From a virus, in the IMG/VR virus record IMGVR_UViG_3300025872_000053, positions 1-64,000 of that record: a DNA stretch of 64,000 nucleotides. One strand, given 5' to 3'. This document shows positions 9,273 to 61,500 of this stretch, piece by piece. The translations under genes were made by a program, and so were the position numbers. The first letter of the stretch is position 1. Every line of letters begins with the position of its first letter. Below the pieces are notes generated by a model. It saw only the letters and a program-made list of their open reading frames with translations. It had not been told where the DNA came from and ran no database searches.

Positions 9273-9949
9273 AACTAATTGGTTTTAATTGGTTTGTGTA
9301 AATAAATGAGCCCCACAAGCAGGAATCGAACCTGCACAACATTCATATATGTCAGTAGAAAAACATATATAACGTAAGAACCCCTAAATTCTACTATTTA
9401 GTGTTCCCTTAATAGAACTGTCGCTCTATTACTGATCCAATCTGTGGGAAATAAGTTTAATGAAAATACAACCCACTGTTGCCTAGATTGTATTCTCTAT
9501 GTGTTCCATGTGCAACAGAAATCCCTCTGCACTCAGAATGTAATAAGTTCTCATAGTGTAAAGAATCATCAATGCTTACTGCATGAGAGGATTATACATA
9601 CCTTATTACAATCTGTCAGCCCTTGGGAAGCTGAAATGGTGCATTAAAAAGCCCAACATAGAAATGTCAGGCGTTATCGGTTGCAATATTTTTGTGCAGC
9701 TGGAGGGACTCGAACCCTCATTTCCTTTGTTAATAACCATGTAAACATGGCATCTCTCCCTTATCTTTTACATTTCCATAATGTAGAGAGCCAACTGCAT
9801 ATTAAAGCTATATCTATTGTCTGTATAATGTGTTATTGATGATGTCTGAATATAGTAGTAATAGGCATGAGATGATGACACACCCTCCTATTTACATCCA
9901 TAATTCACCCACCCAATTCAACATAATCTGTTGATTCCCACCCTTATAT

Positions 9950-36033: not shown

Positions 36034-36906
36034 ATGGCTAAAACAATTGTCATAAGGCTAACTAAGTCTGGCAGCAGAACAAGTACATTCTCCATTTCTG
36101 ACGATTTGGGGAATGTGCTTGCATCTGATGTTCCAAAGGAGGAACTTATCACTGGGTTAGCACTCAGTGTTGCAGATTCTGTGAAGGTGGTTATATTGTC
36201 TTCTACAGGAATAAACTGTTGTAATAAACGATGGAACATTCCTGTAACAACAATTACCACACCAGAACTTGCTGCTATTAACTATCAACAAGTTAATACA
36301 GCATCTATTTGGACACATCTGAAGAATCCTGTGATATACAATACGTTCTATGGATGTATCAACCCATACATCATAGAATATCCTTTTGCATATCAATACT
36401 ATGATGAGATTCTTCAGAATGTAAAAGACTATACAAAAGCCTACAAGTATCTACCTGATCAGTTTGGTGTGTTTGATGATAGTAGAAAGGTAGAAACAGA
36501 CAATCAGTATTTCAACAAAGCTATTCTTTATAACGGTCAGCAGTGTTCTGGTATATTGGAACTTGTTCCAAAACCAATGAATAACCTAAAGGAATACATG
36601 AAATATCCTATATATAATGCTGAGAGTAAGACAATTACATTCACTAAGAGTGATAACTTCTATCAGTATAATACATTCTGGTCGTTAGTTAAAAATAAAT
36701 CCATACCTTTGTTTACTGTTAGTTGTGAATCACTATCAATAGACAAAATTGTAAACCAGTCTAATATGGACTACGGAAAGAGATCCTTTAAGAAGGAACC
36801 TCTAAGAGCAAAAGAACTGAAGGTGAGACATATATTAGACAACAAGTCTGACGCACATTTGGTAAGTCAGTTTATCTTTACACCTGCTCAAATCTCTTAC
36901 AAATAA
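36034..36906 (+). CDS. hypothetical virion protein (290 aa)
   Basis: N-terminal domain paralogous to 35524 gene. Confidence 0.5.
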   Translation: MAKTIVIRLTKSGSRTSTFSISDDLGNVLASDVPKEELITGLALSVADSVKVVILSSTGINCCNKRWNIPVTTITTPELAAINYQQVNTASIWTHLKNPVIYNTFYGCINPYIIEYPFAYQYYDEILQNVKDYTKAYKYLPDQFGVFDDSRKVETDNQYFNKAILYNGQQCSGILELVPKPMNNLKEYMKYPIYNAESKTITFTKSDNFYQYNTFWSLVKNKSIPLFTVSCESLSIDKIVNQSNMDYGKRSFKKEPLRAKELKVRHILDNKSDAHLVSQFIFTPAQISYK

Positions 36907-44942: not shown

Positions 44943-47900
44943 ATGGCTATTTTTGATAACGAACTTATTGATAACGTTTCTAATAGAACTCCTGAGAGTC
45001 CTAAACAACTTCTTCCATCTCCTACAGTGAGAGATGTTGATGTTAGTCTTGGTGGTTTTGAAGTATATGGTAATCCAAGTTCTGGAAAAACAGGGTTGAG
45101 CATTGATCAACTTTCTGAGTTTTCTGGAGTTAGAACTAACCAGTCTTCTTTCAGTAGTCCTGTGCAGATGGTTCCAAGAAGTGAGCTTCTTGCAAATCAG
45201 CGTTATTCAAATTATCAAAGAGGTGTAGATCTTGAAAATGTATATGGATTAAGTCAAAGCTGGTACGATCAGCTAGGAAATGGCATCATTAAAATGGGAG
45301 GTCTTGGTGTAGGTACATTCTTACAAAGTTTTGCTACCATCCCAAACACAATGGCTGCTGTTAAGAATGGTAAACTCTCTGACCTATCTGGAGGAACAGA
45401 TGGTTATGAAGCTGCTATTGATAACTGGACAAAGAACTTAGAAGACATCTTCCCAAACTATTACACTCGTGAGGAACAAAAACATCCTTACTTAGCAATG
45501 CTTCCTTTTGCTCCAGGTTCTGCAAACTTCTGGGGTGATAAGGTTATTAAGAATCTTGGTTTTACAGCAGGTGCTATTGGTGGAGCAGTTGCTCAGGATG
45601 CAGCAATAGGTCTTGTAACAGAGGGTGTTGGAGCAGTTCCATTAATCTCTGCTCAATTAGGTAAAGCTGCTCTTTTCTTAAATAAGATATTCACTGGAAC
45701 AAATAATGTAGAGAAGGCACTTGATATAGCAAAAGCATCAGGTGTTGCTGCTGATACAATACTAGATGTTAAAAAGCTAGGTGATATTGCTGCATATACA
45801 AAAGTTGCTGATGGGTTTAGATATGGTATGGCTTTATATGGATCAGCAAGAACTGAGGCTGCTATTGAAGCTAGAGATTCCTATCGCACTGTAAGAGAAG
45901 ATCTTTTAAAACAATATAAAATTGAGAATGCTGGTGTTGATCCTACAGGAGAAGATGCTGAGCAAATCGAAGATTATGCAACCAGTGCAATGAATACCAG
46001 ATTTGGTATTAACATGGCACTACTGACAGCATCTAATGCTATTCAGTTTGGAAACTTATTTAAATCATTTACATCTGCAAACAAAGCTGTTTCAGGTCAA
46101 CTTACAAGAGAACTTGAAGATATCGGTAAGATAGGTTTGAAGGAAGGATCAAAAGATGTATTTGAAGCAAAGGTTGCTACAGGATTAAAAGATAGAATCT
46201 GGGAATCTGTTAGACCAAAGATGGCAAACATCCTAGTAGAAGGTGTATATGAAGAAGGTGGTCAATATGCTGCTGAGAAAGGTGTGTATGATTATTACAC
46301 AAGAAAGTATAAGAACCTATCTAATCCAAAGAATAAAGAAAACTGGGACACTGTAAATGAAACAATAAGTTCTACACTTACAGGATTAAAGAATCAGTTT
46401 GGTACTTCAGAAGGATTGGAGAACATGATGGTGGGTGCAATTAGTGCTCTCATCACAGGTGGTATAATGGGAAGAGTTGATGCAGCTAAAGGACAAGGAA
46501 AAGAAGCACGTTTACAAAGCTCAGTTAATCTTCTTAACCAATACGGACTCACTGGAATATTGTCTAACCAATATGACAATACATTAAGTTCTGCTGCTAT
46601 TGCTAAAGAGATGGATGAAGCTGCAAAGACTGGTGACATCTTTAAATATAAGAATCTTAAGAACGACATGTTCTTCAACTTTGTACAATCACGTATTCCT
46701 TCAGGAATGCACGATGTTACAATTGAACAGTTGAGGATGTTAAAAGATTTGGACAAAACTGAATTTGAGAAGTCATTTGGTATGGACTTCAATTCTTCTA
46801 ATAAGTCCACTGTAAATGAATATGTAGATTCACTAATCAATGAAGCTAATCAAATTAAGAAGATTAGTGATTCAATTGATTTCACATTCAAGAATCCTTT
46901 CAAGAAGATAGATAATCCAACCACTGAAGAGCAGGCTGGTGAAACAATGAACTTCATGCTGTTTAATCAGTGGAAGACAGAACTTACCTATCTTGCAGCA
47001 AAGGTTCCACATGTAAACAACAGACTTAGCTCTGTACAAGAAAGTGTTAGCAATCTTGCTCCTGCTGTTACAAATGACTTATTAGCTCAGTTGACTAACA
47101 AGGAACTTCTTAAAGATCTTAGTGCATCTTATGAGGAAAGAGCTAATCAGTTAAATAAAACTATTACAGACTTTACATCTCCTCAAGATAGAAAGAGTAT
47201 AAAGGATCAAGTTAAAGCATTGCGTACAGCTTCTGAGAGAATCAATCTTGGTTTGAAAGATGGTGTAGACAATAAGCTATTTGATTACTTACTTAATTTT
47301 GAACTTAATAATCAAGATCCAAAAGCTGATAGACAAGTTGGTCCAGAAAAGTCTGTTGACTTGTTTAATTATGGTCATGATATCAACAGGCTTAATGCTT
47401 TGAAAGATAGAGTGGTTGATTTGTATGACAACCTCACTAGTGAAGAAGGATTTAACAAGTTCATGGAACAAGGAGAAGAATTACGTTCTGGTGCTGTTCC
47501 TGAGGAAGAAACTAAAGAAGAGGTTGTTGAAGTTAAAGAAGGTCCTAAGTTTACAAACAAGGCTGGTGTTAAAGAAACATTTGAGGAAGGTAGAGAATAT
47601 GAAATCCCTGTAAGTAAGAAGGCTAGAGTTAGGAAAGTGGGTGCTGATAGATTCAAAGTAACTCTACCTGATGGTACAGCTACATTCTATCCTACAAGAG
47701 AAGAAGCAGTTGCTGCAGCTGCTGAAGTAAATGAAGAATTTGGTAACCTTCAGAAAGTGAAAGTGCTTGGTATCAATGATGATGGTACAGTGAAGGTTGA
47801 AGATATTAATGGTGATATATACAATCTTGATCCATCTAAGTTTGATGGATATGAAAAGATAATGAGTGCTCAGGAGAAGTTGATGAAGGATAAAAGTGAT

Positions 47901-50900
47901 ATTGAAGCTGAGCAGGCAGAACTTGAAAAGTCTTCTGGTTCTATAGGAACAGACACTCTTGATAACGATATTAAGAAGATTGTTATTGAGGATCCTAAGA
48001 AGGATGCTAATATATTATATACATCTGATACAGGAGCATCTGAAGATTGGGAAGCAGGTAATCTTAAGGCTTATTCTATTAGGAGAATTGAGTTTCTTAA
48101 TAACGTGAAACTTATGTCTAATAGAGGAAGACTTAAAGTAATTCTTGTCACTCCTAAACAAAAGATTCCTGGATTGGAGAATCTTCCAAGTCTTGCATTT
48201 GAAGGACTAGGTGTTACAGAAGATCAATTTAGTGATCCAACTGTAGGACTAGTTGCTGCAATATATGTAGAACAAGATGGTAATGATTACTATTATGTGA
48301 ATGTTGCTGGTAGAAGACTTGCAAAGGTTGGAGAACCAGTAGATATTGAGTCTATTGTATTTGGTACAATGCCTACAGCATCTCTTACATGGAGCAATGG
48401 AAAGCCTAGATATAGGTCTAGTCAAAAGACTGAAGCTGAGGAAATGTCTAAGAGATGGCAGGCTAAAAGAGATGAGTTGTTCAATGCTCCTGAAGGAACA
48501 TTCCAAGCTTACTCTTTTTCTGTAAGCAAAGGTATTCCTGAGGTGAATGATTACTATGATGTAAATGCTGTAGGAGACAATCTTATTCCTGAGAATATGA
48601 TTCCTACACAGGAAGGACTTATTCAAATATCAACTACAGGGTTTGTTGCTCATCAGGGTGAGAACGTATCTATCCCTGCAGGTAGACCAGCTCTTCAGTT
48701 TGGTGAAACTTTAATGTTCCTTAATAACAGGAAATTTACAAAGCAAGAGGCTGAAACAATATTTGAATTATTGAATCGCATCTCTAATGAGATAAAGGAT
48801 CAGTCTGATGCTAATGAGAAGATAAAGATTAACAAGAAGATTGCAAGATTTCTTCAGAACGTCTTATACTGGAGAAAGTCTCCTTCTACCAAAGGTAATC
48901 AACTGTACATTGATACAGACGGAATGAACTTGTTCTTTGGTGGTAAAGCTTATGACTTAACAAACCTTGAAGCTAGCAGAGATGAATTGATTGCTCAGAT
49001 TCAAGAGATGTATAATAATGTGAACAACGAAACTTTAAAAGCATTTGGAGAACCGTTCACAGAATACTATATGAAAGATGGTAAGGTTGTTACAAATGAA
49101 TGGACAAACTACCAAACATATCTTCTTTCATCATCTTTCCCTGATGGTTCAGCTAGATCTGAAAAACAAATTCCTCTTTCTACAGCTGTAGCTAAACCTA
49201 CAGAAGCTGTTCCATACAACTTCAAACAGAAGTATGCAATCCTCCAAGGATTAGATCTTCCTGTTGTATCTGTTAAGAAGGAAGAAGTTAAACCTACAGA
49301 ACCTACTCCTGGAGCTCCTAGTGCTGTAAAGGTTGGTGACTATGTGTTAGATGGTCAAACAAAGAATACATATCAATTAACTGCTGGTCCTGTTGAGTTT
49401 ACAGCAGATATTGATGCAGATGATAATATATCAGTTAGTGTTGAATCTAATGATGTAGTTAGAAATGTTGCTTCTAACAAAGAAACTATGGCTACCATCA
49501 TTGAATCTCTCAAAAAACAAGAAAGGTTTGATGCTGCTAAAGATGAAGAGCAACTTGCTCTTGATTTTATTGCATTAAGAATCACAGCAGATTTAAAGAA
49601 ACAGAAGTCTGAACAAGCTCCTACAACAGCAGCTGTATTACAGCCAGATGTTTCTCCTCTTGCACAAGCACAAGGAACAGCTAGAACAGAGCCTGTTGTT
49701 ACAGCAACTCCTGTTTCTGATATAGAAGCTAAGAAAGCTGACATAGAAAAGAGAAGACAAGAAGAATTAAAAAGTGTCGAACCATATAAAGCAGTATTTG
49801 ATGCTGTTAAAAAAGCAAATGTAGACACAGATAGTGTAGAGTCTTTAAACAAAATAAAACAAGATGCTATTGATTTAAAGATAATTGATGCATCAGCAGG
49901 TAATAGTTTTGTAAGAAGCAATGGTTCTAAATTTACATCTGAAGAGAATGTTTTTGTAATTGAACCAACTAATAAAATCAATGCTAAGTATGACGCAGAG
50001 TTAGCTGCTTTAGAAGAAAAACCTGCTGCACCTAAGAACTTTGGTGGAACCAAACCTCCTGCAAATAGTGAATATAGAAGAGTGGGTACTTTAGGAATAG
50101 ATAGAATCAGTGATGCAGAGATTGAGTTGTTTAAGATATGGGCTGCTGATAAAGTTCCTGGTATTCCTTATGAGGTGATGGAGAGCATTCTTACAACACA
50201 CGATGGTGAGAAAGCATGGGGTGCATTTGAAAATGGTGTTGCTAAGTTTTACAAGTCTGCAGCTAGAGGTACAGAATACCACGAGATATTTGAGGGTATA
50301 TGGAAAGGATTCCTTTCTCCAGAAGAAAGACAAGCTATTCTAGATGAGTTTAAATCTAAGAAGGGTGAGTTCAAAGATAGGCAGTCTGGTAAGATGATTG
50401 CATATGTAGATGCTACAGATCAGCAAGCTAAAGAAAGAATTGCTGATGACTTTGCAGATTTTAAAGTGGGTAAGCTCCCAGCTCGCTCCTTAGGAGAAAG
50501 AATAGTTAAGTTCTTCAGAAGCATTATTGAATTTGTAAAGCAGTTTGTAAACAAACCTTCTAGAAAGGAAGAATTGTTCAAAGCTATTGATACAGGTAGA
50601 TTTAAAGAAAGCGTTCTTCCAGAAAGTGTAAAGAATGACTTTTCTGAATACAGAGCTGTAGAAGGATTGAATGAAAAACAAACCAGAGAGTTTGTTGAGG
50701 ACATCACTGCTAGAGCTTTCCAAATTATATTCAGAACTAATACATCATTGTTCTCCCCAGAGAAACTTACAGCTCCTCAGATATTTGATGACATAAAAGC
50801 TCAATATGAAGAAGAGGGTAAGTTAGAGATTCTTGGAGAGAAAGCATGGAGTGAACTTGTTGGAAAGACAAAAGACTTCTTGCGTACGTTCAAGATTGAG

Positions 50901-53900
50901 TTTGATGACAATGCTCAAGTGAACATTAATGACGAGAATTATAACAACCGTCTATATGCTCCAGAGGCATTCTCTGTAGATTTCAAGAAACAATCTCCTT
51001 ATCCAGTGAAGCTTTTGTTGGGAACACTAACAGAAGCAGTTGCTACAAACCAAGAGAATTCTAATGGCTTGGAACTTCCAAAGCTAAAGAACTCAAGTAT
51101 AATAGGATTGAAGCTATTGAACTTTAGCAGAGCGTTTGTAACTGTACTTGATAAACTTTCTAACACAACAAAGGTTGGAAAGATGATTGATAAGCTAGTT
51201 GACCTAGCTAAATACGACAGTAACTATGTACGTTTGTTCACTCGTCTGAAGGGAACATTGAAAGATAATGAAGGTAATGCAATAATTGATTTCTCTAAGT
51301 TTGAACCTCAAGATTGGAGATTGTTCATTAACTTCTATCAAACTTTCACCAAACAGAAACCAGAAGCTTTGATTCAGTATTTGGATGGAGGAGAAGTGTA
51401 TACAGCTCCTGCTAATTTATTCACTGTAATTAAGCAAACTCAAAAGGGTTGGACAGAGAACATGAAGGCTCTTTCAAAAGATCCTAGTTCTTTAATCACT
51501 TACAATAGTACAGATAAGGTTTATAAAGTTAAAGATCTTAAGGATGTTCCTGTAACATCTCCTCAAGAGATGGTTGAGTTTTTGTCAAGAATAGGTATTG
51601 ATTTTCCAATTGATGTGTTCTTGAAGCTAAGAGAAAAGCAGCAGAAAGAATTTATTACAGCTGTAGGCTCACTTCATACATATCTTCAGAAGGTAGATGA
51701 GGTGATGAGTGTGAAAGGAGAAACTTTAAATGTAGGTGGTCAGTTAGTTAAACTTGCAGAACTATATGTAAGAGTGACCAATCCTTCTCATGAAAACACT
51801 TATAGAAACGTAGAGGACAAACAAACAAATGCATTTGCTGACAGTAATGCTCCATCTGTATTTGAAAGTGAGTTCAATGATGCTAATACATTAGATGAAC
51901 TTCTTGAAGCTAGACCAGAACTTAAAGATGTATTCTCTAAGAACAGCGTGGTTCTTAAGAAGGGAGGATTATTCTTTGATAAAAACGGAAAGAGAATAAA
52001 GTCAGTTAAGGTTAAATACATCCAGGGTGTAAGAGATAATGATAACAAAAAAGGAACTTCTACAGACAGACTTGGTTTAAACACCAGATCTATGTTGGAA
52101 ATTAACCAAAACCTTAATGGTGATTACTATGTTCTTATTCCTGCAGATAGCTCTACAGAGTGGATGATGAACTTGGGTAATGTTGTATCATTTGAAGATA
52201 TTGAATCTGGTGATGCATGGCCTACAATCTACAGCATATTCAGAGGTTATCTAGAAGATGAGATTGCTTTAGCAAAAGCTGATAGAAGACAACTTAATAA
52301 TGTTGGTAGCAGAGCACAAGAGCTTAGGTTCTTTAAAGATATTCTTCCTATAGGTATTCTTGGCAGAATCAATGATATGATTTTGAACAATGAGTCTAAT
52401 GAAAATATCAATACATACATTGATGAAAACATTTCTGAAATCAATGAGTCTGTTAAGAATCTGATTTCTGAACAAGCAAACGAAGTTAATCTCAATCCTT
52501 CTCAGCTAGACAGCAACTTCTTAAAGAAAGAGAAGTTAGGTAAAGATCTTTCTCCAAAGGAACTTGAGAGCGTTAAAAACTTCTTGGCTGTAAACTATAT
52601 CATAAACAACATAGAATACCACAAGGTATTGTTTGGTGATCCTTATCAGTTTGAATTAAAGAACGGTAAGCTTGATGAAACTAAACGTATCAAGTCTTTC
52701 CTTTCTCCAAGAAGATTAACTGTAGATTTCCCAGAGCTTAACTCTGCATTGAATGTAGATTATAACAAAGCAGGAAACATTGCTCTTGATCCTGAGGAAC
52801 TAGGATATCACATGTTCAAACCATTTACTAATACAGTTACTCTTAGTGATGTGAAGGTAGTTGGTAGTTTGGCTAACCTTAATCCTGCGTATGCTAAAAC
52901 TAATGAAGCAGATGCTGCTTCTTGGATTGCAGATAATACATACAGAGAGGTTAAGATTAAGAATGGTCAGTGGACTGATGAAGCAGAAGCTTGGCATCAG
53001 CATGAAATGGCTTACACTAGACTTAAGCTTCATGAGAAAGGATTGTATCAATATAAGAACAATCGTCTTAGAGAGCAAGATGCTATTGAAGCTGCTAAAC
53101 CAAGTCCTAAATATGTAACAGAGGTTCTTAAACCTATTGTATCTGGAAACAAATTTAACAAGACAAACTTTGATCTTGTACTAGATAAGTTCTCTCAGAT
53201 GCCTTTATATTATAGCATGGTTGAAGGAACTAACCTTGAGGCTCTTTACATGAAAATGTTTAAAGAGAAGATTGGTTATGTTATTATGGAAAGTGGTAGA
53301 AAGGTTGGTAAAGAAGGAACATATAAGTTGTACAATAATGATGGTACACTTAATCAAAAACCTTTCAACAATCTTGTTCAAGTTCCATGGAAAGCTTATG
53401 GTATACAAGTGGAGAATGCTTTTGAAGGAGCTAAGTCTCAGACTAGAGGTTCTCAGCTTATGAAGATTGCAACACTAGATTTGTTTGATAATGGTAAAGC
53501 TAGTCCAGAAGCAAAAGAACAATACAACAGACACAAGAAAATACAAGATGCTCTTCATAGAAATGGATACATTGAGCTATTGAAGAAGCTTGGGATCAAA
53601 GATCTTGGTGATAGTTATGAGCTTGTTGACAAAGCAAGTGTTTCACAACTTCTTGAGCGTGAGATGCTTAGAAGAGAATTGTCTGACAATGCTAAAGATA
53701 CAGTGAGACTTGATGATAAAGGACAGTTTAGAATTCCTTTTGAAGCATCTAATGCTTATGTACAAATAAGAAACATTCTATTCTCTTTGGTAGACAAGTC
53801 TCTTGTTTCTCCAAAGATGAATGGTAGCTCTCACGTACAGGTTCCTGCTACAGGATGGGAAAGTTCTGCAGAAGGAAGATCTCTTGCTATAAAGAGAGAT

Positions 53901-56852
53901 GATAAGTGGGTTAAGATTAGTAGAGGTGAGTTTGAAAAGCTTTCTGATGAAGAGAAATCAAAGGTGGCTCTTACAGACACATCATTGAAGTTCTATACAA
54001 AGGATGCTCCTTATTCTGAGATTCTTCTTCCACATTGGTTCAAAGAGAAGTTTGCTAATTCTAGATTCTCTACAGACGAGCAGCTTTTGGACTATCTCAA
54101 TAAACCAGAGAATCAATCTATCCTTAGAGGTATTGGTTTCCGTATTCCTACACAGGCTCTTAGTTCTGTAGAAGTATTCAAGGTGAAAGGTTTCCTTCCA
54201 CAATCTATGGGAGCTACAGTGGTTGTTCCTTCTGAAATTACTACCAAGGCAGGATCTGACTTTGATATAGATAAATTGAATATGTATTTAAAGAATACAT
54301 ATGTAACTAAATCAGGTGATATCAAGCAAGTTCCATTCTTTGGAATTGGTGAAGAGGGAATGAATAAAGCAAAAGAGTTTATCAAAGCTCAAGACTTGAC
54401 TGGTGATAACGGTCAAAGAACTGAAGAGGCTCTTGAGGATGATATCAATACACTAGCAGAGAGACTATACAAACAATCTCTTGAGAACGAATACTATGAA
54501 TCTTTGGAAGCTATTATTACACTTCCTGAGAACTTTGAAAGACTTATCACTCCTGTAAGTGATGGTGGTTTGAAGAAGATTGCTGACAAGCTTGATGATC
54601 TTAGAAATGAAAAAGAAGAGAACATCAAGAATAAACTTATCAGTAGAAAGTTCATGGATTCAGTGAGACATGCTTTTGTTACTGGTAAGAAGTGGGTAGG
54701 TATTGCTGCTGTAAATATTACAGGTCAATCTCTTACACAGAAATCAGAAGTGTATATTGATCCTACAAAGTTTGCAGCTGCAGGTGGAAAAGATATGTTC
54801 TTCTTAGGAGATGGTAAAGTTGCTCTTCCTCATAACACTGTAAAGATAAACGGTGAGGAAAGAATATCTATCTCTGGTGTATATGATTATACAGGTAAGA
54901 AACTTATCTCTGATGGTCTATCTGGATATGCTACATCTTTTGTGGACGTTGCTAAAGATCCATACATACTTAAGGTTATTCAAAGTGATCTTGCTGTAGG
55001 TACATTTATGTTCTTACAAAGGATTGGAGTTCCTATTGAGACAGCAGCAATGTTCATGAATCAGCCTATCATCTCTGAGTATTTAAAGATGCTTGATGAT
55101 AGAGGAACTAAAAATTTATTTACAAAAGGTGCTATATTAGATATACAAGATAGGTTTGTAACAACAGGACGTGGTATCGAATTTGCAGAAATAAGTTTAG
55201 GTACATTAGAAGATAATATTAGTGAATACTATTCTGGAAAAGAACTTAGTCCAGCAAAGAATGCAGAACAACATAAGATATTCTTTGAGTTCTTGAAGTA
55301 TGCTAAGATGGCTGAGTTTAGCTTCAAGCTTACACAGGCATCTAACTATGACACTACTAAGTTTAAGAGTGGTGATACATTATTCAAGAAACAAACAAGA
55401 ACTGATGTTGCTAGAGAGGTGAATATATTCTCTTCTGTAGATAAGATTCTTGACAACAACTTTATTGGTGAACAAGCTAATCTTTTAGACAAAGCTGCTG
55501 AATCACTTGGTGAGATTCTTAAGCTTGACAAAGATCAGTTTACAATCATAACTAACTCAGTGTTAAAGAGTTATGCTGAGAACGAATACCTATCTGCTGA
55601 TAAGTATGAAAAGATAGCAAACAAACTCAAAGCGTCATTCCTTGATTACATTATTCAAATCAAGAGCGGAATCAACACTGAGATTAAAGATCTATTGGTA
55701 GAAAAAGGAACTTCTGTAGCAGACAAACTTGCTCTTGCTAAGAAGAATCATCCTGAGGTTACTATTCTGAAGGATCTTCAGATAGAAGGTTCTGATAGAG
55801 TGGATGGTGCAAAGAGTATTAAGCTTGCTGCAAACATTAAAGAAGCTTATGACGAGAACTACTATACAGGATTAATGAGAGAGATGAGAGATAATCCTGC
55901 CACTAGAGATTTGTATTATGATATTGTGGTGTTGGCAATGTTGCAAGGAACATACCAGTCTGCCATCTCTATAAAGAACATTATTCCTATTGAAGACTTC
56001 AGTGAGAACATTGCTCCTATCATATCAACCTTGATAGCAGACACAGATGTACAAGCTTTCTCTGAAGGATGGTTCCAAAGAAACAACTGGAAGGATAATG
56101 ATGTATGGAAGACTGTTAGTCCTAGATTCTTTCCTGCAGGAGAAGATGCTCCTATAGGAGAAGATCAGTATGGTAACGATATATATCAGTATGTTTCCAC
56201 TGCATACTTCCCTAATATTACAGAAGGACTTGGAATTAAATCTGTTGATAGAAAGATTCTTGCACTAAGTGATGCATTTAATTCTTTTGATATAAATGCT
56301 GACTTTGTTCTTGTTCCTAGAGTGATTGATCAGAACGGTGAGCAAATTGATATGAAGACAGGACAAACAATCACACCATCAATGTTTGCTCAAAGAAAAG
56401 CAAAAGGTGATCTTTCTCTGAAAGAAGTGTATGGATATAAAAAGGTTAAGTTTAAAAATGGTCAACCATTAACTTATACAGAAATGTATAAGGGTGAGCC
56501 TATAACAAAATATGTGTATAAGCTCATCAACTTATATGGTGATGGAGCTCTTGCTTCTGAATACTATCTAGACTTCCAACCATCTGTTCTTGATAATGGT
56601 ACAGTGAAGATAGCTAATGAGATTCCTGATGCAGACATTCTTAATTACTTTGCTCCAAAACAAGCTGCTGAGGAATTAGCTGTTGCAAACCTTGACGCTT
56701 TAGAAGAGTTTAGTGATGAAAGAAAACAAGAAATTATAACTAACTTTGCTGCAAAACATAAGATGACAGAGGAGCAAGCTAAGGAATATATCAACCAAGC
56801 TCTTCAGAAGGATAAAGAAAACACAATAGCTAAACTTAAAGAATGTTATTAA
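44943..56852 (+). CDS. giant protein (3969 aa) with multisubunit-RNAP beta-prime-like catalytic segment; candidate virion RNA polymerase
   Basis: aa ~3066-3117 'FRIPTQALSSVEVFKVKGFLPQSMGATVVVPSEITTKAGSDFDIDKLNMYL' vs RPB1/beta-prime 'NRQPSLHKMS...YNADFDGDEMNMHVP' (R.P(S/T)...DFDxDx(M/L)NM(H/Y)); DFDID at nt 54258..54272; N-terminal P-loop-like 'GNPSSGKTG'; Gly/Ala-rich hydrophobic segment near N-term. Confidence 0.55.
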   Translation: MAIFDNELIDNVSNRTPESPKQLLPSPTVRDVDVSLGGFEVYGNPSSGKTGLSIDQLSEFSGVRTNQSSFSSPVQMVPRSELLANQRYSNYQRGVDLENVYGLSQSWYDQLGNGIIKMGGLGVGTFLQSFATIPNTMAAVKNGKLSDLSGGTDGYEAAIDNWTKNLEDIFPNYYTREEQKHPYLAMLPFAPGSANFWGDKVIKNLGFTAGAIGGAVAQDAAIGLVTEGVGAVPLISAQLGKAALFLNKIFTGTNNVEKALDIAKASGVAADTILDVKKLGDIAAYTKVADGFRYGMALYGSARTEAAIEARDSYRTVREDLLKQYKIENAGVDPTGEDAEQIEDYATSAMNTRFGINMALLTASNAIQFGNLFKSFTSANKAVSGQLTRELEDIGKIGLKEGSKDVFEAKVATGLKDRIWESVRPKMANILVEGVYEEGGQYAAEKGVYDYYTRKYKNLSNPKNKENWDTVNETISSTLTGLKNQFGTSEGLENMMVGAISALITGGIMGRVDAAKGQGKEARLQSSVNLLNQYGLTGILSNQYDNTLSSAAIAKEMDEAAKTGDIFKYKNLKNDMFFNFVQSRIPSGMHDVTIEQLRMLKDLDKTEFEKSFGMDFNSSNKSTVNEYVDSLINEANQIKKISDSIDFTFKNPFKKIDNPTTEEQAGETMNFMLFNQWKTELTYLAAKVPHVNNRLSSVQESVSNLAPAVTNDLLAQLTNKELLKDLSASYEERANQLNKTITDFTSPQDRKSIKDQVKALRTASERINLGLKDGVDNKLFDYLLNFELNNQDPKADRQVGPEKSVDLFNYGHDINRLNALKDRVVDLYDNLTSEEGFNKFMEQGEELRSGAVPEEETKEEVVEVKEGPKFTNKAGVKETFEEGREYEIPVSKKARVRKVGADRFKVTLPDGTATFYPTREEAVAAAAEVNEEFGNLQKVKVLGINDDGTVKVEDINGDIYNLDPSKFDGYEKIMSAQEKLMKDKSDIEAEQAELEKSSGSIGTDTLDNDIKKIVIEDPKKDANILYTSDTGASEDWEAGNLKAYSIRRIEFLNNVKLMSNRGRLKVILVTPKQKIPGLENLPSLAFEGLGVTEDQFSDPTVGLVAAIYVEQDGNDYYYVNVAGRRLAKVGEPVDIESIVFGTMPTASLTWSNGKPRYRSSQKTEAEEMSKRWQAKRDELFNAPEGTFQAYSFSVSKGIPEVNDYYDVNAVGDNLIPENMIPTQEGLIQISTTGFVAHQGENVSIPAGRPALQFGETLMFLNNRKFTKQEAETIFELLNRISNEIKDQSDANEKIKINKKIARFLQNVLYWRKSPSTKGNQLYIDTDGMNLFFGGKAYDLTNLEASRDELIAQIQEMYNNVNNETLKAFGEPFTEYYMKDGKVVTNEWTNYQTYLLSSSFPDGSARSEKQIPLSTAVAKPTEAVPYNFKQKYAILQGLDLPVVSVKKEEVKPTEPTPGAPSAVKVGDYVLDGQTKNTYQLTAGPVEFTADIDADDNISVSVESNDVVRNVASNKETMATIIESLKKQERFDAAKDEEQLALDFIALRITADLKKQKSEQAPTTAAVLQPDVSPLAQAQGTARTEPVVTATPVSDIEAKKADIEKRRQEELKSVEPYKAVFDAVKKANVDTDSVESLNKIKQDAIDLKIIDASAGNSFVRSNGSKFTSEENVFVIEPTNKINAKYDAELAALEEKPAAPKNFGGTKPPANSEYRRVGTLGIDRISDAEIELFKIWAADKVPGIPYEVMESILTTHDGEKAWGAFENGVAKFYKSAARGTEYHEIFEGIWKGFLSPEERQAILDEFKSKKGEFKDRQSGKMIAYVDATDQQAKERIADDFADFKVGKLPARSLGERIVKFFRSIIEFVKQFVNKPSRKEELFKAIDTGRFKESVLPESVKNDFSEYRAVEGLNEKQTREFVEDITARAFQIIFRTNTSLFSPEKLTAPQIFDDIKAQYEEEGKLEILGEKAWSELVGKTKDFLRTFKIEFDDNAQVNINDENYNNRLYAPEAFSVDFKKQSPYPVKLLLGTLTEAVATNQENSNGLELPKLKNSSIIGLKLLNFSRAFVTVLDKLSNTTKVGKMIDKLVDLAKYDSNYVRLFTRLKGTLKDNEGNAIIDFSKFEPQDWRLFINFYQTFTKQKPEALIQYLDGGEVYTAPANLFTVIKQTQKGWTENMKALSKDPSSLITYNSTDKVYKVKDLKDVPVTSPQEMVEFLSRIGIDFPIDVFLKLREKQQKEFITAVGSLHTYLQKVDEVMSVKGETLNVGGQLVKLAELYVRVTNPSHENTYRNVEDKQTNAFADSNAPSVFESEFNDANTLDELLEARPELKDVFSKNSVVLKKGGLFFDKNGKRIKSVKVKYIQGVRDNDNKKGTSTDRLGLNTRSMLEINQNLNGDYYVLIPADSSTEWMMNLGNVVSFEDIESGDAWPTIYSIFRGYLEDEIALAKADRRQLNNVGSRAQELRFFKDILPIGILGRINDMILNNESNENINTYIDENISEINESVKNLISEQANEVNLNPSQLDSNFLKKEKLGKDLSPKELESVKNFLAVNYIINNIEYHKVLFGDPYQFELKNGKLDETKRIKSFLSPRRLTVDFPELNSALNVDYNKAGNIALDPEELGYHMFKPFTNTVTLSDVKVVGSLANLNPAYAKTNEADAASWIADNTYREVKIKNGQWTDEAEAWHQHEMAYTRLKLHEKGLYQYKNNRLREQDAIEAAKPSPKYVTEVLKPIVSGNKFNKTNFDLVLDKFSQMPLYYSMVEGTNLEALYMKMFKEKIGYVIMESGRKVGKEGTYKLYNNDGTLNQKPFNNLVQVPWKAYGIQVENAFEGAKSQTRGSQLMKIATLDLFDNGKASPEAKEQYNRHKKIQDALHRNGYIELLKKLGIKDLGDSYELVDKASVSQLLEREMLRRELSDNAKDTVRLDDKGQFRIPFEASNAYVQIRNILFSLVDKSLVSPKMNGSSHVQVPATGWESSAEGRSLAIKRDDKWVKISRGEFEKLSDEEKSKVALTDTSLKFYTKDAPYSEILLPHWFKEKFANSRFSTDEQLLDYLNKPENQSILRGIGFRIPTQALSSVEVFKVKGFLPQSMGATVVVPSEITTKAGSDFDIDKLNMYLKNTYVTKSGDIKQVPFFGIGEEGMNKAKEFIKAQDLTGDNGQRTEEALEDDINTLAERLYKQSLENEYYESLEAIITLPENFERLITPVSDGGLKKIADKLDDLRNEKEENIKNKLISRKFMDSVRHAFVTGKKWVGIAAVNITGQSLTQKSEVYIDPTKFAAAGGKDMFFLGDGKVALPHNTVKINGEERISISGVYDYTGKKLISDGLSGYATSFVDVAKDPYILKVIQSDLAVGTFMFLQRIGVPIETAAMFMNQPIISEYLKMLDDRGTKNLFTKGAILDIQDRFVTTGRGIEFAEISLGTLEDNISEYYSGKELSPAKNAEQHKIFFEFLKYAKMAEFSFKLTQASNYDTTKFKSGDTLFKKQTRTDVAREVNIFSSVDKILDNNFIGEQANLLDKAAESLGEILKLDKDQFTIITNSVLKSYAENEYLSADKYEKIANKLKASFLDYIIQIKSGINTEIKDLLVEKGTSVADKLALAKKNHPEVTILKDLQIEGSDRVDGAKSIKLAANIKEAYDENYYTGLMREMRDNPATRDLYYDIVVLAMLQGTYQSAISIKNIIPIEDFSENIAPIISTLIADTDVQAFSEGWFQRNNWKDNDVWKTVSPRFFPAGEDAPIGEDQYGNDIYQYVSTAYFPNITEGLGIKSVDRKILALSDAFNSFDINADFVLVPRVIDQNGEQIDMKTGQTITPSMFAQRKAKGDLSLKEVYGYKKVKFKNGQPLTYTEMYKGEPITKYVYKLINLYGDGALASEYYLDFQPSVLDNGTVKIANEIPDADILNYFAPKQAAEELAVANLDALEEFSDERKQEIITNFAAKHKMTEEQAKEYINQALQKDKENTIAKLKECY

Positions 56853-56853
56853 C

Positions 56854-59800
56854 ATGGCTTGTATAAATCCAAATAGTCCAGAATTTAAAGCTGCTCTTGA
56901 GAGAACAGGCAATCCTCTATTGGCTGAGATTGAAGTGGATAATGTTTCTCCAAAAACCATGGCATTGATTAAAGATTTTATCAAGCGCATTGGTGTAGAC
57001 ATAAAGTTAGTTAAAGACATTTCTGTAAATGGTATAAAGCAAGATGCTAATGGTGTAGCTCTTATTATGCAGAAGCTTATACAGGTGGTAGAAGGTAAAG
57101 AAGATACAGTACTTCCTGAGGAGGCAATGCACTTTGCTGTTGAGATTATACAGCAGACAGACCCCAAGCTTTTCAATACACTTCTGAAGGAGATTAATGG
57201 TTATAGGATATTACAAGAAGTGATTGATACATATGGAACTGATCCTAACTACCAAACAAAAGATGGTAAGCCTGATATACTAAAGCTTAAGAAAGAAGCT
57301 ATAGCTAAGGTGTTGGCTGAAGTGGTGATTAATAAATCAGAAGGTTTATCTGAGAATGCTAATAACCTTGCTAAGGTGGAGAGCTGGTGGAGAACAATCC
57401 TTGATGCTCTAAAGCGTATATTCCAAAAGTCTGGATTTGACACAGCAGCAATGAAGGTGTTAACTGGAGAAGCTATTGGTACAGTAGATGATATTAGAGC
57501 TGAGGAAGATGCTATATTCCTACAGAAAAGTACATCTCAAGAAGCTGTATATAATAAACTTAAAGACATCCAATCCAAGATTGCTAAAAAGGATGATGGA
57601 TATTACATAGATGGTAAGAAGGTTCCTAGAAGAGTAACTGACTTAGTTAAAGACTGGTACGAAAGAAGATTTAAAGCTAACGATCTTACCAAGTCTGATT
57701 ATCAGAAAGCTGTTGATGATCTCAAAGCTGAGAAAGGTACAGCTGGACATGCTGATATAGAATATGCATTCTCTGTATTTGTAGATGAGGATGGATTCCT
57801 AAGAGATAATCCTTTAGATGATTCTACATACATATCTCAACTCAATCCTTCTAACAGAGACATGTATGACCTCTTAAAAAACAATCTTAAGGATCGTCTT
57901 AATTCTTTTCCTGTAGGAACAAGATTTATGTCTGAGGTGATGGTGTATGATGCTAAACGTGGATTGGCTGGTACAATAGACTTCCTTGCTATCACTCCTG
58001 ATGGAAAGATGAACATCCTTGACTGGAAGTTCATGGATCTTAACGTTGATAAATATGAAGATGTTCCTTGGTATAAAGTGAATGCATGGAGAGAGCAGAT
58101 GGAACAGTACAAACTTATTCTGCAGAACGTTTATGGTGTTAAACCACAAGACTTCCAGCAGACAAGAATGATTCCTATTAAAGCATTCTACTCTCCTGGA
58201 AATGCTAAGCTTGGTGTTCTTCCACAATTGCAGTCAGTTAAAATAGGTGATGTTAATATAAAGAACATCACAGATGACTATCTTATTCCTGTAGGACTTG
58301 AGGGAGAAAGCACAGGAAACAAAAAGATTGATGCTCTTCTAGAAAAACTAAACGCTGTATACAAAAGGATTTCTGAAAAGAAAGCTCTTCCTAGTGAGAA
58401 GTTATCTAAAGCTGAGCAACTTAATTCTTTGTTTACAGCTATACGTCAATTGCAAATGAAGCAAAACTTAAAACCTTTGCTTCGTCAGGCTAATATATTG
58501 AACAAAGAGATTCAGAAAACAATTGATAGATATAAAGAAAACTGGGCTGGTAAAGATCCAAAAGACTTTAAACAATCAGATATTAGTAACTTCTATGAGG
58601 AATTAGAAACAGCAAAGAACTCATTGATTGCTTACACTACACTGAATACAGACCTTAAGTTTTTATTCCAAGGAGAACTTTCTGAGGAAGACAAAGCACT
58701 TAGAGAAGAACTTCGTACTGTAACAGAATCAGCACAAGAACTTGATTCAAACCTTGATGATATATCAGGAGAGTTTGTAAACGATTTTGTTGCTGGATCA
58801 GAAGGAGTTGAGAACTATCTATCTCCTGAGAAAGTTATCAAGGGTATGACCAAGTGGTTTGTTTCTACAACAGGCTTACAGCTCAAGGCATTAGAAACTT
58901 TATATAAGAAAGCAAACAGAGCTTTTGGTTTTGCAGCTATGGACACCATAGATGAAACTAAGAAGCTTGGAACATTGAAAGAAGCTTATGATAAATGGGC
59001 TCAGGCTAAAGGATTAAACAATAAGAACTACTTTGACATTCTTAAAAAGAAGGATAAGAACGAACTTATTGATGAGTTTCAACGTGATTTCTACAGAGAG
59101 CTTAAATCTAAATCTACTGACAAAGACTTTGCTTGGATTAGAGATAACATAGATGCAGCTGAGTACAATAAGTTTTTGAAAGAAAAGCTTCAGGAAGAAC
59201 TTGATAGGATTGATAATAAAGTGAGAGTTGGATCTGAAGAAGATATCAACAGAGAAATATCTAGAGAGAAAGCAAATATTACAAACCTATATAATACATC
59301 TACAGCTGAATCACCTGGTTGGTTTTTGTATGATTTGACAAAGAAGTTCCCTAAGAGAGATAAGTGGGAGTCTGCTGAATGGAAAGAACTTACAAAACCT
59401 GAGAACAAACCTGCATTTGATTTTTACAACTATATCAAAGAAAGGAATGAATATTATCAAGAGATAGGATATATTAGTAAGGCTGAGGCTAGGGTGTTTC
59501 TACCGTTTGTTAGAAAAGGACTAATGGAGAAAATCATCTTTGGTGGTAATGTTACACTTGGTGAACAGTTCCTAAGAGCTATATCTATTGATGAAGGTGA
59601 TATTGGATTTGGTAAAATAGATCCTCTTACAGGTAGATTGATTGATACGATTCCTACATATTTCACAAAAGAGATTGAGGGAGATTTAAGTGAAGACTTG
59701 TTCAGGAATATGGCTCTCTATAATGAGATGGCTATTAGATACAAGTATGTTAGTGATATCGAAGCACAGGCTAGAGCTCTTGTTGCTACAGAAAGAAACA

Positions 59801-61500
59801 AGAAAGCTATTGCTACTTCTATGTTTGGTAAAACTCAATACAAGAACGGTAAGCTTGAATACACTCCAGATAACAACGAGAACACAAAGCTTGTTGAGGA
59901 CATGATGAAGTCTATCATCTATGGACAAAAGTTTATTCAAAGTGAAACCTTTGATCAGCTCCTTGGTACATTAGGTGACTTTGGAGAAAGAGCAAACAAG
60001 AAACTTGGAATGAAGATATTCCCAGAAAACCTTTCTGGAAGACAGATTAGTATTAACAAGGTGCTCAATCAGTTGAACACTACATTCCAATTAAACGCAT
60101 TAGGTCTTAATCCATTGTCTGCACTTTCTAACTTGTTGGGTGGTAATTTCCAGTCTATGATTAATGCTGGAACATATTTTACTAGACAAGACTATTTATC
60201 TACAGAGCTTTGGATGGCAGGAAATAAAATGACTCGTGGTGAGGATAGAGAAAAGATGATTCGTTCAATCGAATACTTCCTTCCTTTCACAGACAGTTAC
60301 AATAGAGAACTTGCTAAAAAGTTATCTCTAAGTAAGTTGAGTCAAGAGAATATACAGGAGTTTCTTATGGTGCTCATGAGGAATTCTGATATGTTTGTTC
60401 AGTCTGCTAACTTCTTTACATTCCTTAAGAACACAATAGTGGATGGTGATAGAGTGGTTAACGTTAGAGAATACCTAAGAGAGCAACCTGAATATCAAGA
60501 TATGTATGCTGGTACACAGGAAGAAAGACAAGCTAGAGCTGATAAGTTTGAAAAGGATGTTAAAGAGCTAGTAGAAAGTAAAGGTGTATTGAAAGTTGCT
60601 GAGGTTAAGAATGGTGAACTTACTATTCCTGGAGTGGATAGAAAATCAGAATCTGTTATTGAACTCAGAAGAAAGGTACAGCAACTTAGTAAAGATGCCC
60701 TTGGTAATCTTACAGAGGATGATATCAGAGCTATCAACCAGAACATATATGGAAAATCATTTATGTTGTTCAAGAACTGGATTCCTCGTCTAGTGGATGT
60801 ACGTTTGGGTAATCTTAAATACAACTCAGCATCTGATGCTTATGAGTGGGGTAGAATGAGAAATGTATTCAGAGTGATATCTGAAGACGTGATTGGCTCA
60901 ATCAACAATCTTACAAACTCCCTGCAAGCAAATGACAAGGGTGTAGAGTTTATGAAAAATCTTTACAAAAAGAAGAAAGAAGAATATGAAACAGAAACTG
61001 GTAAGGAGTTAGATATGACTGAGTCTCAGTTTATTGACCTTACTAGAAAGAACATCAAAGGACAACTTGTAGACTTGATGTTTATGTTAACTATATATGC
61101 TCTCTATCTTGGACTAAAAGCAAATGCTCCAGATGATGATGAGGATGCTGCAGTTAAGAATCAATATAAGTTTATGCTTAGAGCTGCTGACAAGATTAAG
61201 GATGAATTGGCTTACTTCTATGATCCAACTAGTTTGACAAGTCTTGTATCCTCTGGAATATTCCCATCAACAACCTATTTAAATAATTTTAAAAAGCTTA
61301 TTGTAAATTTCAACACTGAAATGTTTGGATTGGTAGTTGGTGATGAGGAGCTTGTAGAGAAAACCAAAGTGATAAAGTACTTGATGAAGACATTCCCTGT
61401 AGCTAATCAGGCAGCTGGAATGCTTCCAATGTTCTATCCAGAGCTTGCTAAAGATCTAGGTATCAGAGCACAGTCTCAGGCTAGACCAGTTAGCCTATAA
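56854..61500 (+). CDS. giant protein (1548 aa) with RecB-family PD-(D/E)xK nuclease-like motif set
   Basis: 'GTID376FL...ILD390WK392F...Q415MEQY419' = D / (D/E)xK / QxxxY in RecB-like order and spacing (nt 57970..58110); start 1 nt after upstream stop. Confidence 0.5.
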   Translation: MACINPNSPEFKAALERTGNPLLAEIEVDNVSPKTMALIKDFIKRIGVDIKLVKDISVNGIKQDANGVALIMQKLIQVVEGKEDTVLPEEAMHFAVEIIQQTDPKLFNTLLKEINGYRILQEVIDTYGTDPNYQTKDGKPDILKLKKEAIAKVLAEVVINKSEGLSENANNLAKVESWWRTILDALKRIFQKSGFDTAAMKVLTGEAIGTVDDIRAEEDAIFLQKSTSQEAVYNKLKDIQSKIAKKDDGYYIDGKKVPRRVTDLVKDWYERRFKANDLTKSDYQKAVDDLKAEKGTAGHADIEYAFSVFVDEDGFLRDNPLDDSTYISQLNPSNRDMYDLLKNNLKDRLNSFPVGTRFMSEVMVYDAKRGLAGTIDFLAITPDGKMNILDWKFMDLNVDKYEDVPWYKVNAWREQMEQYKLILQNVYGVKPQDFQQTRMIPIKAFYSPGNAKLGVLPQLQSVKIGDVNIKNITDDYLIPVGLEGESTGNKKIDALLEKLNAVYKRISEKKALPSEKLSKAEQLNSLFTAIRQLQMKQNLKPLLRQANILNKEIQKTIDRYKENWAGKDPKDFKQSDISNFYEELETAKNSLIAYTTLNTDLKFLFQGELSEEDKALREELRTVTESAQELDSNLDDISGEFVNDFVAGSEGVENYLSPEKVIKGMTKWFVSTTGLQLKALETLYKKANRAFGFAAMDTIDETKKLGTLKEAYDKWAQAKGLNNKNYFDILKKKDKNELIDEFQRDFYRELKSKSTDKDFAWIRDNIDAAEYNKFLKEKLQEELDRIDNKVRVGSEEDINREISREKANITNLYNTSTAESPGWFLYDLTKKFPKRDKWESAEWKELTKPENKPAFDFYNYIKERNEYYQEIGYISKAEARVFLPFVRKGLMEKIIFGGNVTLGEQFLRAISIDEGDIGFGKIDPLTGRLIDTIPTYFTKEIEGDLSEDLFRNMALYNEMAIRYKYVSDIEAQARALVATERNKKAIATSMFGKTQYKNGKLEYTPDNNENTKLVEDMMKSIIYGQKFIQSETFDQLLGTLGDFGERANKKLGMKIFPENLSGRQISINKVLNQLNTTFQLNALGLNPLSALSNLLGGNFQSMINAGTYFTRQDYLSTELWMAGNKMTRGEDREKMIRSIEYFLPFTDSYNRELAKKLSLSKLSQENIQEFLMVLMRNSDMFVQSANFFTFLKNTIVDGDRVVNVREYLREQPEYQDMYAGTQEERQARADKFEKDVKELVESKGVLKVAEVKNGELTIPGVDRKSESVIELRRKVQQLSKDALGNLTEDDIRAINQNIYGKSFMLFKNWIPRLVDVRLGNLKYNSASDAYEWGRMRNVFRVISEDVIGSINNLTNSLQANDKGVEFMKNLYKKKKEEYETETGKELDMTESQFIDLTRKNIKGQLVDLMFMLTIYALYLGLKANAPDDDEDAAVKNQYKFMLRAADKIKDELAYFYDPTSLTSLVSSGIFPSTTYLNNFKKLIVNFNTEMFGLVVGDEELVEKTKVIKYLMKTFPVANQAAGMLPMFYPELAKDLGIRAQSQARPVSL

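Follow-up and report, generated by a model that had tools for sequence, protein, structure and literature searches.

A 3969-residue phage protein that very probably joins a cargo module to a crAss-type two-barrel RNA polymerase

The crAss-type virion RNA polymerase (RNAP) was predicted in 2018, and its structure was solved in 2020-21. In phage phi14:2, this enzyme is gp66, which is packaged in the virion and carries out rifampicin-resistant early transcription (10.1101/2020.03.07.982082). Its counterpart in phage crAss001, gp50, is likewise present in the virion and belongs, together with gp47 and gp49, to the virion cargo proteins (PMC10172136). Here, we analyse a stretch of 64,000 nucleotides (nt) of viral DNA, positions 1 to 64,000 of IMG/VR record IMGVR_UViG_3300025872_000053 (in the following, the window), which contains on its plus strand a complete and uninterrupted open reading frame (ORF) of 3969 codons with an ATG start (44943..56852). 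This ORF very probably encodes a single-chain two-barrel DNA-dependent RNAP of the crAss-like virion family of phi14:2 gp66 and crAss001 gp50, which is N-terminally fused to a gp47-like cargo module and a zincin-like motif. An initial annotation, made from the letters of the sequence, had proposed a giant virion RNAP at this position, and the proposal is supported by homology to gp66 and gp50, by fold, by the catalytic residues and by the cargo-gene context. Virion packaging and ejection of the window protein we infer from homology and gene context.

The window protein shares with gp66 (PDB entry 6VR4) the two-barrel single-chain core with connector, bridge helix and trigger loop, the motif DFDID with its isoleucine, an R-x-P element 39 residues upstream, conserved lysines, a C-terminal cysteine and a gene of the gp65/gp49 family directly downstream. 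In contrast to gp66, a stand-alone protein of 2180 amino acids (aa) with an N-terminal Cys3, it carries ~1850 extra N-terminal residues and no N-terminal cysteine, at an identity of 21-25%. Compared with crAss001, the N-terminal module corresponds to gp47, the RNAP core to gp50 and the downstream protein to the gp49 family, whereas crAss001 encodes these as three separate genes on two strands and its gp47 has a canonical HExxH where the window protein has HExxE. Fused giant RNAPs resembling the window protein occur in Suoliviridae, with 4946 aa in cr118_1, 4774 aa in cr50_1, 4502 aa in cr125_1 and 4328 aa in cr113_1. They share with the window the same terminal cysteine pair and the order of muzzle, two Cys-free proteins, giant RNAP, a partner of ~1400-1700 aa and opposite-strand genes; however, core identity is ~25%, identity to any named Bacteroidota phage is at most 32%, and the TerL of the window is nearest to that of the cyanophage Lbo-JY46. 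From QDE-1 and cellular beta/beta-prime, the window protein differs in that a single chain holds both barrels, in the Ile that stands for Gly in the motif and in the absence of a Pfam RNA_pol_Rpb1 match.

In its role, the window protein would resemble the virion RNAP of coliphage N4 (gp50, ~3500 aa), a giant capsid-packaged and ejected RNAP for early genes. The N4 enzyme has a T7-like single-subunit fold unrelated to the two-barrel family, and neither N4 nor T7 RNAP appears among the sequence matches (phmmer against PDB) or the structure matches (Foldseek) of the window protein. As a member of a different family, it is not an apt yardstick for size, for which the initial annotation had used it. 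The enzyme type is already known, and fused versions of 4000-5000 aa are already in GenBank crassviruses. The polymerase itself therefore adds little conceptually, and the pairing of terminal cysteines described below is the part worth following.

The polymerase core

In a phmmer search of the whole protein against all PDB chain sequences, 6VR4 is the sole match (E=5.6e-23). The alignment consists of two blocks, in which residues 2468-3121 correspond to gp66 782-1376 and residues 3178-3383 to gp66 1474-1660. In the catalytic loop, GFRIPTQALSS...GSDFDIDKLNMYL of the window protein lies over GYRIPNQGQSS...GSDFDIDKMYVML of gp66, and the segment RGIGFRIPTQALSSVEVFKVKGFLPQSMGATVVVPSEITTKAGSDFDIDKLNMYL sits opposite gp66 RAIGYRIPNQGQSSNDPLQIVGILPEAMGDTIVAYTEIPTKTGSDFDIDKMYVML. 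DFDID is found at aa 3106-3110 (nt 54258-54272) and FRIPTQ at aa 3066-3071, with 39 residues from R3067 to D3106; the coordinates of ORF and motif and this spacing are exactly those of the initial annotation. With the alignment of the catalytic loop to 6VR4, the extended context of DFDID goes far beyond chance, as had been claimed, but the additional likeness seen between LNMY and MNMH is mostly coincidental, since after the motif only K3111 is conserved in the family (KMYVML in gp66, KLYIML in gp50). Position 4 of this Mg-binding motif, which aligns to gp66 1361-1365, is Ile and not Gly, and Ile or Val at this position of DFDxD is a hallmark of crAss RNAPs (10.1101/2020.03.07.982082).

The same family is reached by other searches. 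Of 50,697 phage records, tblastn with the C-terminal 1669 aa matches 105, all crAss-like, at ~25% identity and on genes annotated as RNAP; by megablast, there is no near-identical DNA among phage records. A family profile built from 35 metagenomic homologs matches crAss001 gp50 with E=2.8e-97 and gp66 with E=6.3e-77, the latter over gp66 residues 652-2153 and up to the C-terminus of either protein. When aa 3300-3969 were compared exhaustively by phmmer with 1.84 billion representatives, relatives were found in 725 clusters (50% identity) at E<=1e-3 and in 346 clusters at E<=1e-30. All counts of full-length relatives given here refer to 93 members among the best 150 relatives. They are 3693-5650 aa long with a median of 4202 aa, and 92 of the 93 carry DFD[IV]D, as DFDID in 70 and as DFDVD in 22. 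Together with the Suoliviridae genes of 4328-4946 aa, these lengths contradict the earlier view that ~4000 aa is at the upper end of sizes for such proteins.

The AlphaFold2 model of aa 2401-3500 (predicted local distance difference test, pLDDT, 85.8; predicted template modelling score, pTM, 0.81) has 6VR4 as its best Foldseek match in the PDB (E=3.8e-32, TM 0.65), followed by QDE-1 (prob 1.0) and then by many beta-prime/RPB1 chains. Among the structure matches are also double-psi beta-barrels (DPBBs) that were designed or isolated (8.0, 7.2, 6.5). The structure comparison that the initial annotation had recommended finds the likeness to 6VR4 and to beta-prime/RPB1 chains, and matches to DPBBs stand in place of the missing barrel, or missing likeness to the second RNAP barrel, that would have spoken against a polymerase. 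For the model of aa 1651-2500 (pLDDT 68.8), 6VR4 is the sole significant Foldseek match (E=8e-7, 590 columns), and the gp66-like body therefore starts at ~aa 1900.

Domain limits within this body were obtained by transferring the published gp66 boundaries via a 25-sequence alignment that includes gp66 and gp50. The gp66 landmarks are the connector at 1095-1238, the bridge helix at 1529-1559, the trigger loop at 1598-1636 and the catalytic DFDID at 1361-1365, with its three essential Asp (10.1101/2020.03.07.982082). The non-catalytic N-terminal part of the RNAP, aa ~1900-2709 (50640..53069; this and all following features lie on the plus strand), corresponds to the gp66 region upstream of the first barrel, as indicated by AlphaFold2 and Foldseek and, from residue 2468 onward (gp66 782 onward), by phmmer. 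DPBB1, the first and beta-like barrel, is assigned to aa ~2710-2816 (53070..53390) and contains K2787 (gp66 K1065), which is invariant in the alignment, while K2841 and K2958 are near-invariant. The connector between the barrels, aa ~2817-2964 (~148 aa; 53391..53834), is equated with gp66 1095-1238 via Q2822 = 1100 and K2958 = 1232. Its start carries Q2822, G2836, Q2838 and K2841, and it is helical in the AlphaFold2 model (helices H437-555, model positions).

DPBB2, the second and beta-prime-like barrel at aa ~2965-3145 (53835..54377), holds R3067-I-P3069 (nt 54141-54149) and D3106-F-D3108-I-D3110-K3111, for which the gp66 equivalents are R1322, P1324, D1361, D1363, D1365 and K1366. Both gp66 and crAss001 gp50 share R3067-x-P3069 as well as G-S-D-F-D-x-D-K (aa 3104-3111) with the window protein. 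The bridge-helix equivalent at aa ~3234-3264 (54642..54734) contains G3253 and A3256, corresponding to G1548 and A1551 within the gp66 bridge helix, and the AlphaFold2 model has a long helix at this place (835-865, model positions). The trigger-loop equivalent at aa ~3321-3359 (54903..55019) contains a conserved V-D3335-x-A-K-D-P, and its residues I3322, D3335, P3340 and L3358 map to gp66 1599, 1612, 1617 and 1635, within the gp66 trigger loop. The window protein shows the two DPBBs in one chain, joined by a connector of the ~140-residue type, that define the gp66/gp50 family, and all residues conserved between gp66 and gp50 are kept. The further barrel with conserved Lys that the initial annotation had expected upstream is present, ~290-400 residues before DFDID.

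The N-terminal fusion and alternative readings

The N-terminal cargo module at aa ~88-842 (45204..47468) is recognised by phmmer and tblastn, which match it to the N-terminal part of gp47 in crAss001 and to a protein encoded by Leptolyngbya phage Lbo-JY46. Residues 88-710 match gp47 residues 75-729 (phmmer), and residues 94-842 match the stand-alone 1552-aa protein of Lbo-JY46 (Lbo_14935) with E=2e-53. Hydropathy analysis of the module reveals moderately hydrophobic Gly-rich segments at aa 115-133 and 228-246 and no strong transmembrane segment. Dozens of 50%-identity clusters in the giant-RNAP family show strong conservation of the extreme N-terminus, MAIFDNEL (44943-44966), with variants such as MPIFDNEL and MPDFDKDL; it could serve as a signal for packaging or be the end that leads during ejection. 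It is followed, after the module, by a variable middle region at aa ~843-1729 (47469..50129) with Pro/Thr/Ala-rich linker-like stretches, in which identity to two metagenomic orthologs (L002, L003) is only 29-37% and no domain was identified in Pfam, PHROG or PDB.

Between the middle region and the polymerase lies the zincin-like motif region, aa ~1730-1860 (50130..50522), with Y-H-E-I-F-E at aa 1779-1784 (HEIFE, aa 1780-1784, nt 50280-50294). Residues 1754-1814 match gp47 2131-2191 (phmmer), where gp47 has HExxH (HEAFH, aa 2157), and the literature refers to the HExxH region as a zincin-like protease domain (10.1101/2020.03.07.982082). In the window protein, Glu replaces the second His to give HExxE. 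The same change is found in the relatives L002, L003, P0049 and P0053, whereas P0048 and P0051 keep HExxH. HExxH is absent from all giant ORFs of the window, and the zincin-like region is recognised only via the gp47 alignment. The ORF thus combines cargo of the gp47 type, a zincin-like stretch and an RNAP of the gp66/gp50 type.

Such a fusion could be a polyprotein, in which the zincin-like domain or the partner would cleave the chain, before or after ejection, into gp47-like cargo and an RNAP of ~2100 aa, and the functional polymerase would then not be the giant chain of ~450 kDa. In favour of this, phi14:2 and crAss001 encode the two parts separately, the zincin-like motif is placed between the modules, and Drobysheva et al. 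propose cleavage of fused polyproteins (10.1101/2020.03.07.982082). On the other hand, the motif is HExxE and not HExxH, Foldseek with the low-pLDDT model of the region returns no protease match and does not confirm the fold, no cleavage site is known, and hundreds of clusters stably retain the fused form. We consider cleavage a serious possibility, if on balance a doubtful one.

The gene context of the RNAP fusion is that of a virion block, as the initial annotation had described it. Upstream and on the same strand are genes for a crass-type TerL, portal, major capsid protein, an IHF-like protein, other virion proteins and the Crassvirus muzzle protein (PF25731, E=3e-34). The gene order is muzzle, two Cys-free giants of 1787 and 860 aa, RNAP and a 1548-aa gene, after which the strand switches; the 860-aa protein resembles the protein in the same position in Lbo-JY46. 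The 1548-aa partner (56854..61500) is assigned to the gp49/gp65 'RNAP-associated' family by an ortholog profile, which matches the cr108_1 protein downstream of the RNAP with E=8e-47 and on iteration reaches crAss001 gp49. A phmmer comparison of the neighbouring giant ORFs with phi14:2 gp65 and gp67 yields nothing, and the downstream gene is placed only via the profile. With the muzzle upstream, a gp47-like module fused in and a gp49-family gene downstream, the ORF has the surroundings of a late or cargo block, at the end of which it lies.

By analogy with gp66 and the crAss001 cargo, the RNAP fusion would be expressed late and packaged in the cargo zone of the capsid. Before the DNA or together with it, the partially unfolded protein would then be ejected into the host via the tail. 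There it would refold and, as experiments have shown for gp66, transcribe early genes independently of the host RNAP, probably from a melted or single-stranded template. Alternatively, the protein could be a functional RNAP that is not packaged and serves middle or late transcription in the cell, like the non-virion RNAPs of phiKZ and AR9. Next to the cargo genes on both sides and the virion location of gp66 and gp50, this seems improbable to us.

Slightly less probable still is an RNAP-derived but catalytically dead protein with a structural or ejection role only, as channel or cargo. This reading could draw on the crystals of gp66, in which the enzyme is self-inhibited and the motif adopts a non-canonical conformation (10.1101/2020.03.07.982082), on the large N-terminal fusion, which suggests other roles, and on phage Lbo-JY46, which manages without an RNAP. 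However, the three Asp, K3111, R3067, P3069, the DPBB1 lysines and D3335 are all kept, and the conservation of such residues across a family diverged to ~25% identity argues for selection on catalysis. As for the bare motif, DxDxD is uninformative by itself because ~1.2 occurrences are expected by chance at 6.73% Asp in 3969 aa, and the case rests on the extended context; the initial annotation had rightly cautioned about one chance copy and about DIDAD, which is found at aa 1489 in the middle region and is the only other DxDxD in the protein. A chance DFDID in a giant structural or tail protein without polymerase fold, with which this expectation, the second copy and the lack of Pfam or PHROG matches would agree, is refuted by the phmmer match to 6VR4, the Foldseek and DPBB structure matches and the profile matches to gp50 and gp66, and we give it practically no credence.

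Some points weigh against an active, ejected RNAP fusion as we read it. Identity to any characterised enzyme is low (21-25%), and packaging, ejection and Mg-dependent RNA synthesis have been established for gp66 only and, where presence in the virion is concerned, also for crAss001 gp50. The whole 3969-aa protein has no match in Pfam or PHROGs. The N-terminal domain by which gp66 blocks its own cleft (self-inhibition) was not identified in the model of aa 1651-2500, whose match to the 6VR4 N-terminal region (E=8e-7, pLDDT 68.8) is without residue-level mapping of gp66 196-233. Self-processing by the zincin-like motif is uncertain because of the Glu in place of the second His. Finally, the family profile, which finds phi14:2, crAss001 and cr118_1 at E<1e-70, detects no gp66-type RNAP in the whole 125-kb genome of Lbo-JY46.

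Lbo-JY46 is the nearest cultured relative of the window phage, with 40.6% identity in TerL and E=4e-201 for the muzzle protein. It encodes a gp47-like protein and a 2748-aa protein with zincin and gp49-like parts, which show the terminal Cys pair (L005 14935-27841; also L014, L015 and L016). Because Lbo-JY46 has these cargo modules without a gp66-type RNAP, whether lost or never present, the polymerase is dispensable in the wider lineage and forms an optional, swappable link between conserved cargo modules.

Terminal cysteines of the cargo proteins

The RNAP fusion ends in ...KLKECY*, and C3968 (codon 56844..56846) is the sole Cys of its 3969 residues. The 1548-aa partner starts with MACINPN... 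and likewise has a sole Cys, C3 (codon 56860-56862), so that, across the junction of the two genes, one codon follows the other at a distance of 16 nt. Together, the four giant ORFs that follow the muzzle gene contain 2 Cys in 8164 residues, where ~118 are predicted from the other late proteins (1.44%). The two ORFs between muzzle and RNAP (36906-42269, 1787 aa, and 42357-44939, 860 aa) have zero Cys, and the muzzle protein has 33. Proteins at equivalent positions in Suoliviridae, cr108_1 and Lbo-JY46 are Cys-free as well, and the lack of Cys seems to mark proteins that have to unfold for passage through the tail.

Among the full-length metagenomic RNAPs, 89 of 93 carry a Cys among their last six residues, while an N-terminal Cys occurs in none; the overall Cys frequency is 0.048%. 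Essentially all N-terminally complete partner homologs start with MxC or MxxC, usually with their sole Cys. The terminal pairing is seen in every genome checked. In phi14:2, gp67 has its sole Cys at the very end (1797), Cys3 and Cys2179 are the only ones in gp66, and the sole Cys of gp65 is Cys3, so that gp67 Cys1797 faces gp66 Cys3, and gp66 Cys2179 faces gp65 Cys3. In crAss001, Cys2339 of gp47 (2341 residues) faces Cys5 of gp50, and Cys2404 of gp50 (2412 residues, with a further Cys1334) faces Cys5, the sole Cys of gp49. The 1552-aa protein of Lbo-JY46 ends in Cys, and the only Cys of the next protein is Cys4. In the four Suoliviridae and cr108_1, the RNAP ends with ...ICNL, ...ECE, ...HCKGE or ...LCK, and the partner starts with MYKC, MQC, MIC or MANVC. 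The junction between gp47-like protein and RNAP carries a Cys on each side when the proteins are separate and none when they are fused, as in the window. In a lineage where RNAP and partner are fused (P0188, 5544 aa; fragment P0174), the whole protein has 0 Cys.

Because single terminal cysteines face each other and are absent where the proteins are fused, we tentatively propose, as a plausible but far from settled idea, that they join the ejected cargo proteins of crAss-like phages head to tail by disulfides. In the window phage, C3968 of the RNAP fusion would be bonded to C3 of the 1548-aa partner. The chain in phi14:2 would run from gp67-Cys1797 to Cys3-gp66-Cys2179 to Cys3-gp65, and that in crAss001 from gp47-Cys2339 to Cys5-gp50-Cys2404 to Cys5-gp49. 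Such a chain would set the order in which the proteins are threaded through the tail; once in the reducing cytoplasm of the host, it would be broken and the proteins freed. To link the same modules, gene fusion with its peptide bond and the Cys pair with its disulfide would be interchangeable means. A fusion-creating deletion would, however, remove both Cys codons trivially, and the persistence of a fused Cys-free lineage shows only that covalently joined proteins can do without the Cys pair.

Virions of crAss001 are known to contain disulfides in their tail (PMC10172136). The terminal cysteines are mentioned neither in the crAss001 structure paper (PMC10172136) nor in the gp66 preprint (10.1101/2020.03.07.982082), nor were they found in full-text literature searches. 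Intein, sortase and lipobox accounts of the terminal Cys were considered and rejected, because a Cys only 1-5 residues from the terminus leaves neither space nor signal for any of them. How cargo is ordered and threaded is a question that the crAss001 structural atlas did not answer (PMC10172136), and disulfide concatenation, if true, would be a concrete mechanism for ordering megadalton cargo protein and pulling it through the crassvirus tail. As a separate observation, many full-length relatives (P0070-P0213) have a second Cys ~82 residues upstream of DFD[IV]D, which the window protein lacks (near aa 3024).

Lineage, family architecture and other features of the window

The TerL of the window is closest to that of the unclassified phage Lbo-JY46 (40.6%), followed by Cellulophaga phages phi17:2 and phi4:1, and members of Crassvirales are at ~28%. 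Crass-associated PHROGs and PF25731 are matched among the window proteins. By these protein comparisons, the phage most likely represents a crAss-like lineage of sister or outlying position. It represents a very large uncultured clade (the 725 clusters given above), in which the protein is typically ~4200 aa long and the gp47-like module and the RNAP are always in one chain. The fused form of ~4000 aa is the usual architecture in this mostly aquatic metagenomic clade, and the window ORF is colinear over residues 1-3905 with the metagenomic ortholog L007.

A split of the gene into two or three ORFs in relatives was considered and rejected, because the breaks coincide with 100-N scaffold gaps (L002 7073-7172 and 9866-9965; L008 7521-7620 and 9867-9966) or with single frameshifts (L003 ~9900-9920; L007 ~9863), and intact relatives of 3700-5650 aa exist. 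A word-index protein search returned only proteins of at most 1881 aa, which mimics a split architecture. In crAssphage cr108_1 (L009 16526-16817), the RNAP gene is broken inside the catalytic motif, where one ORF ends with ...AKAGSD and the next starts with LYDIDKMY ~290 nt further on; this has the appearance of an intron, or of some other intervening element, within the codons of the active site. Some relatives carry a NADAR domain (PF08719) inserted near the RNAP C-terminus (L002 14173-14669; P0003, P0010, P0017 and P0041), and some partner homologs carry PF18760 (P0231, P0252, P0254 and P0255); neither domain is found in the respective window protein.

No tRNA or Rfam family was found in the window. 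Its last part, 62001-64000, has a G+C content of 0.449 compared with ~0.36 elsewhere, and its sizeable ORFs are confined to 62843-63619 on the minus strand and an overlapping plus-strand ORF, with no Pfam match. Among ORFs otherwise without Pfam match, the leftward block encodes an Xre-type helix-turn-helix protein at 4464-5048 on the minus strand (PF01381, E=8e-12).

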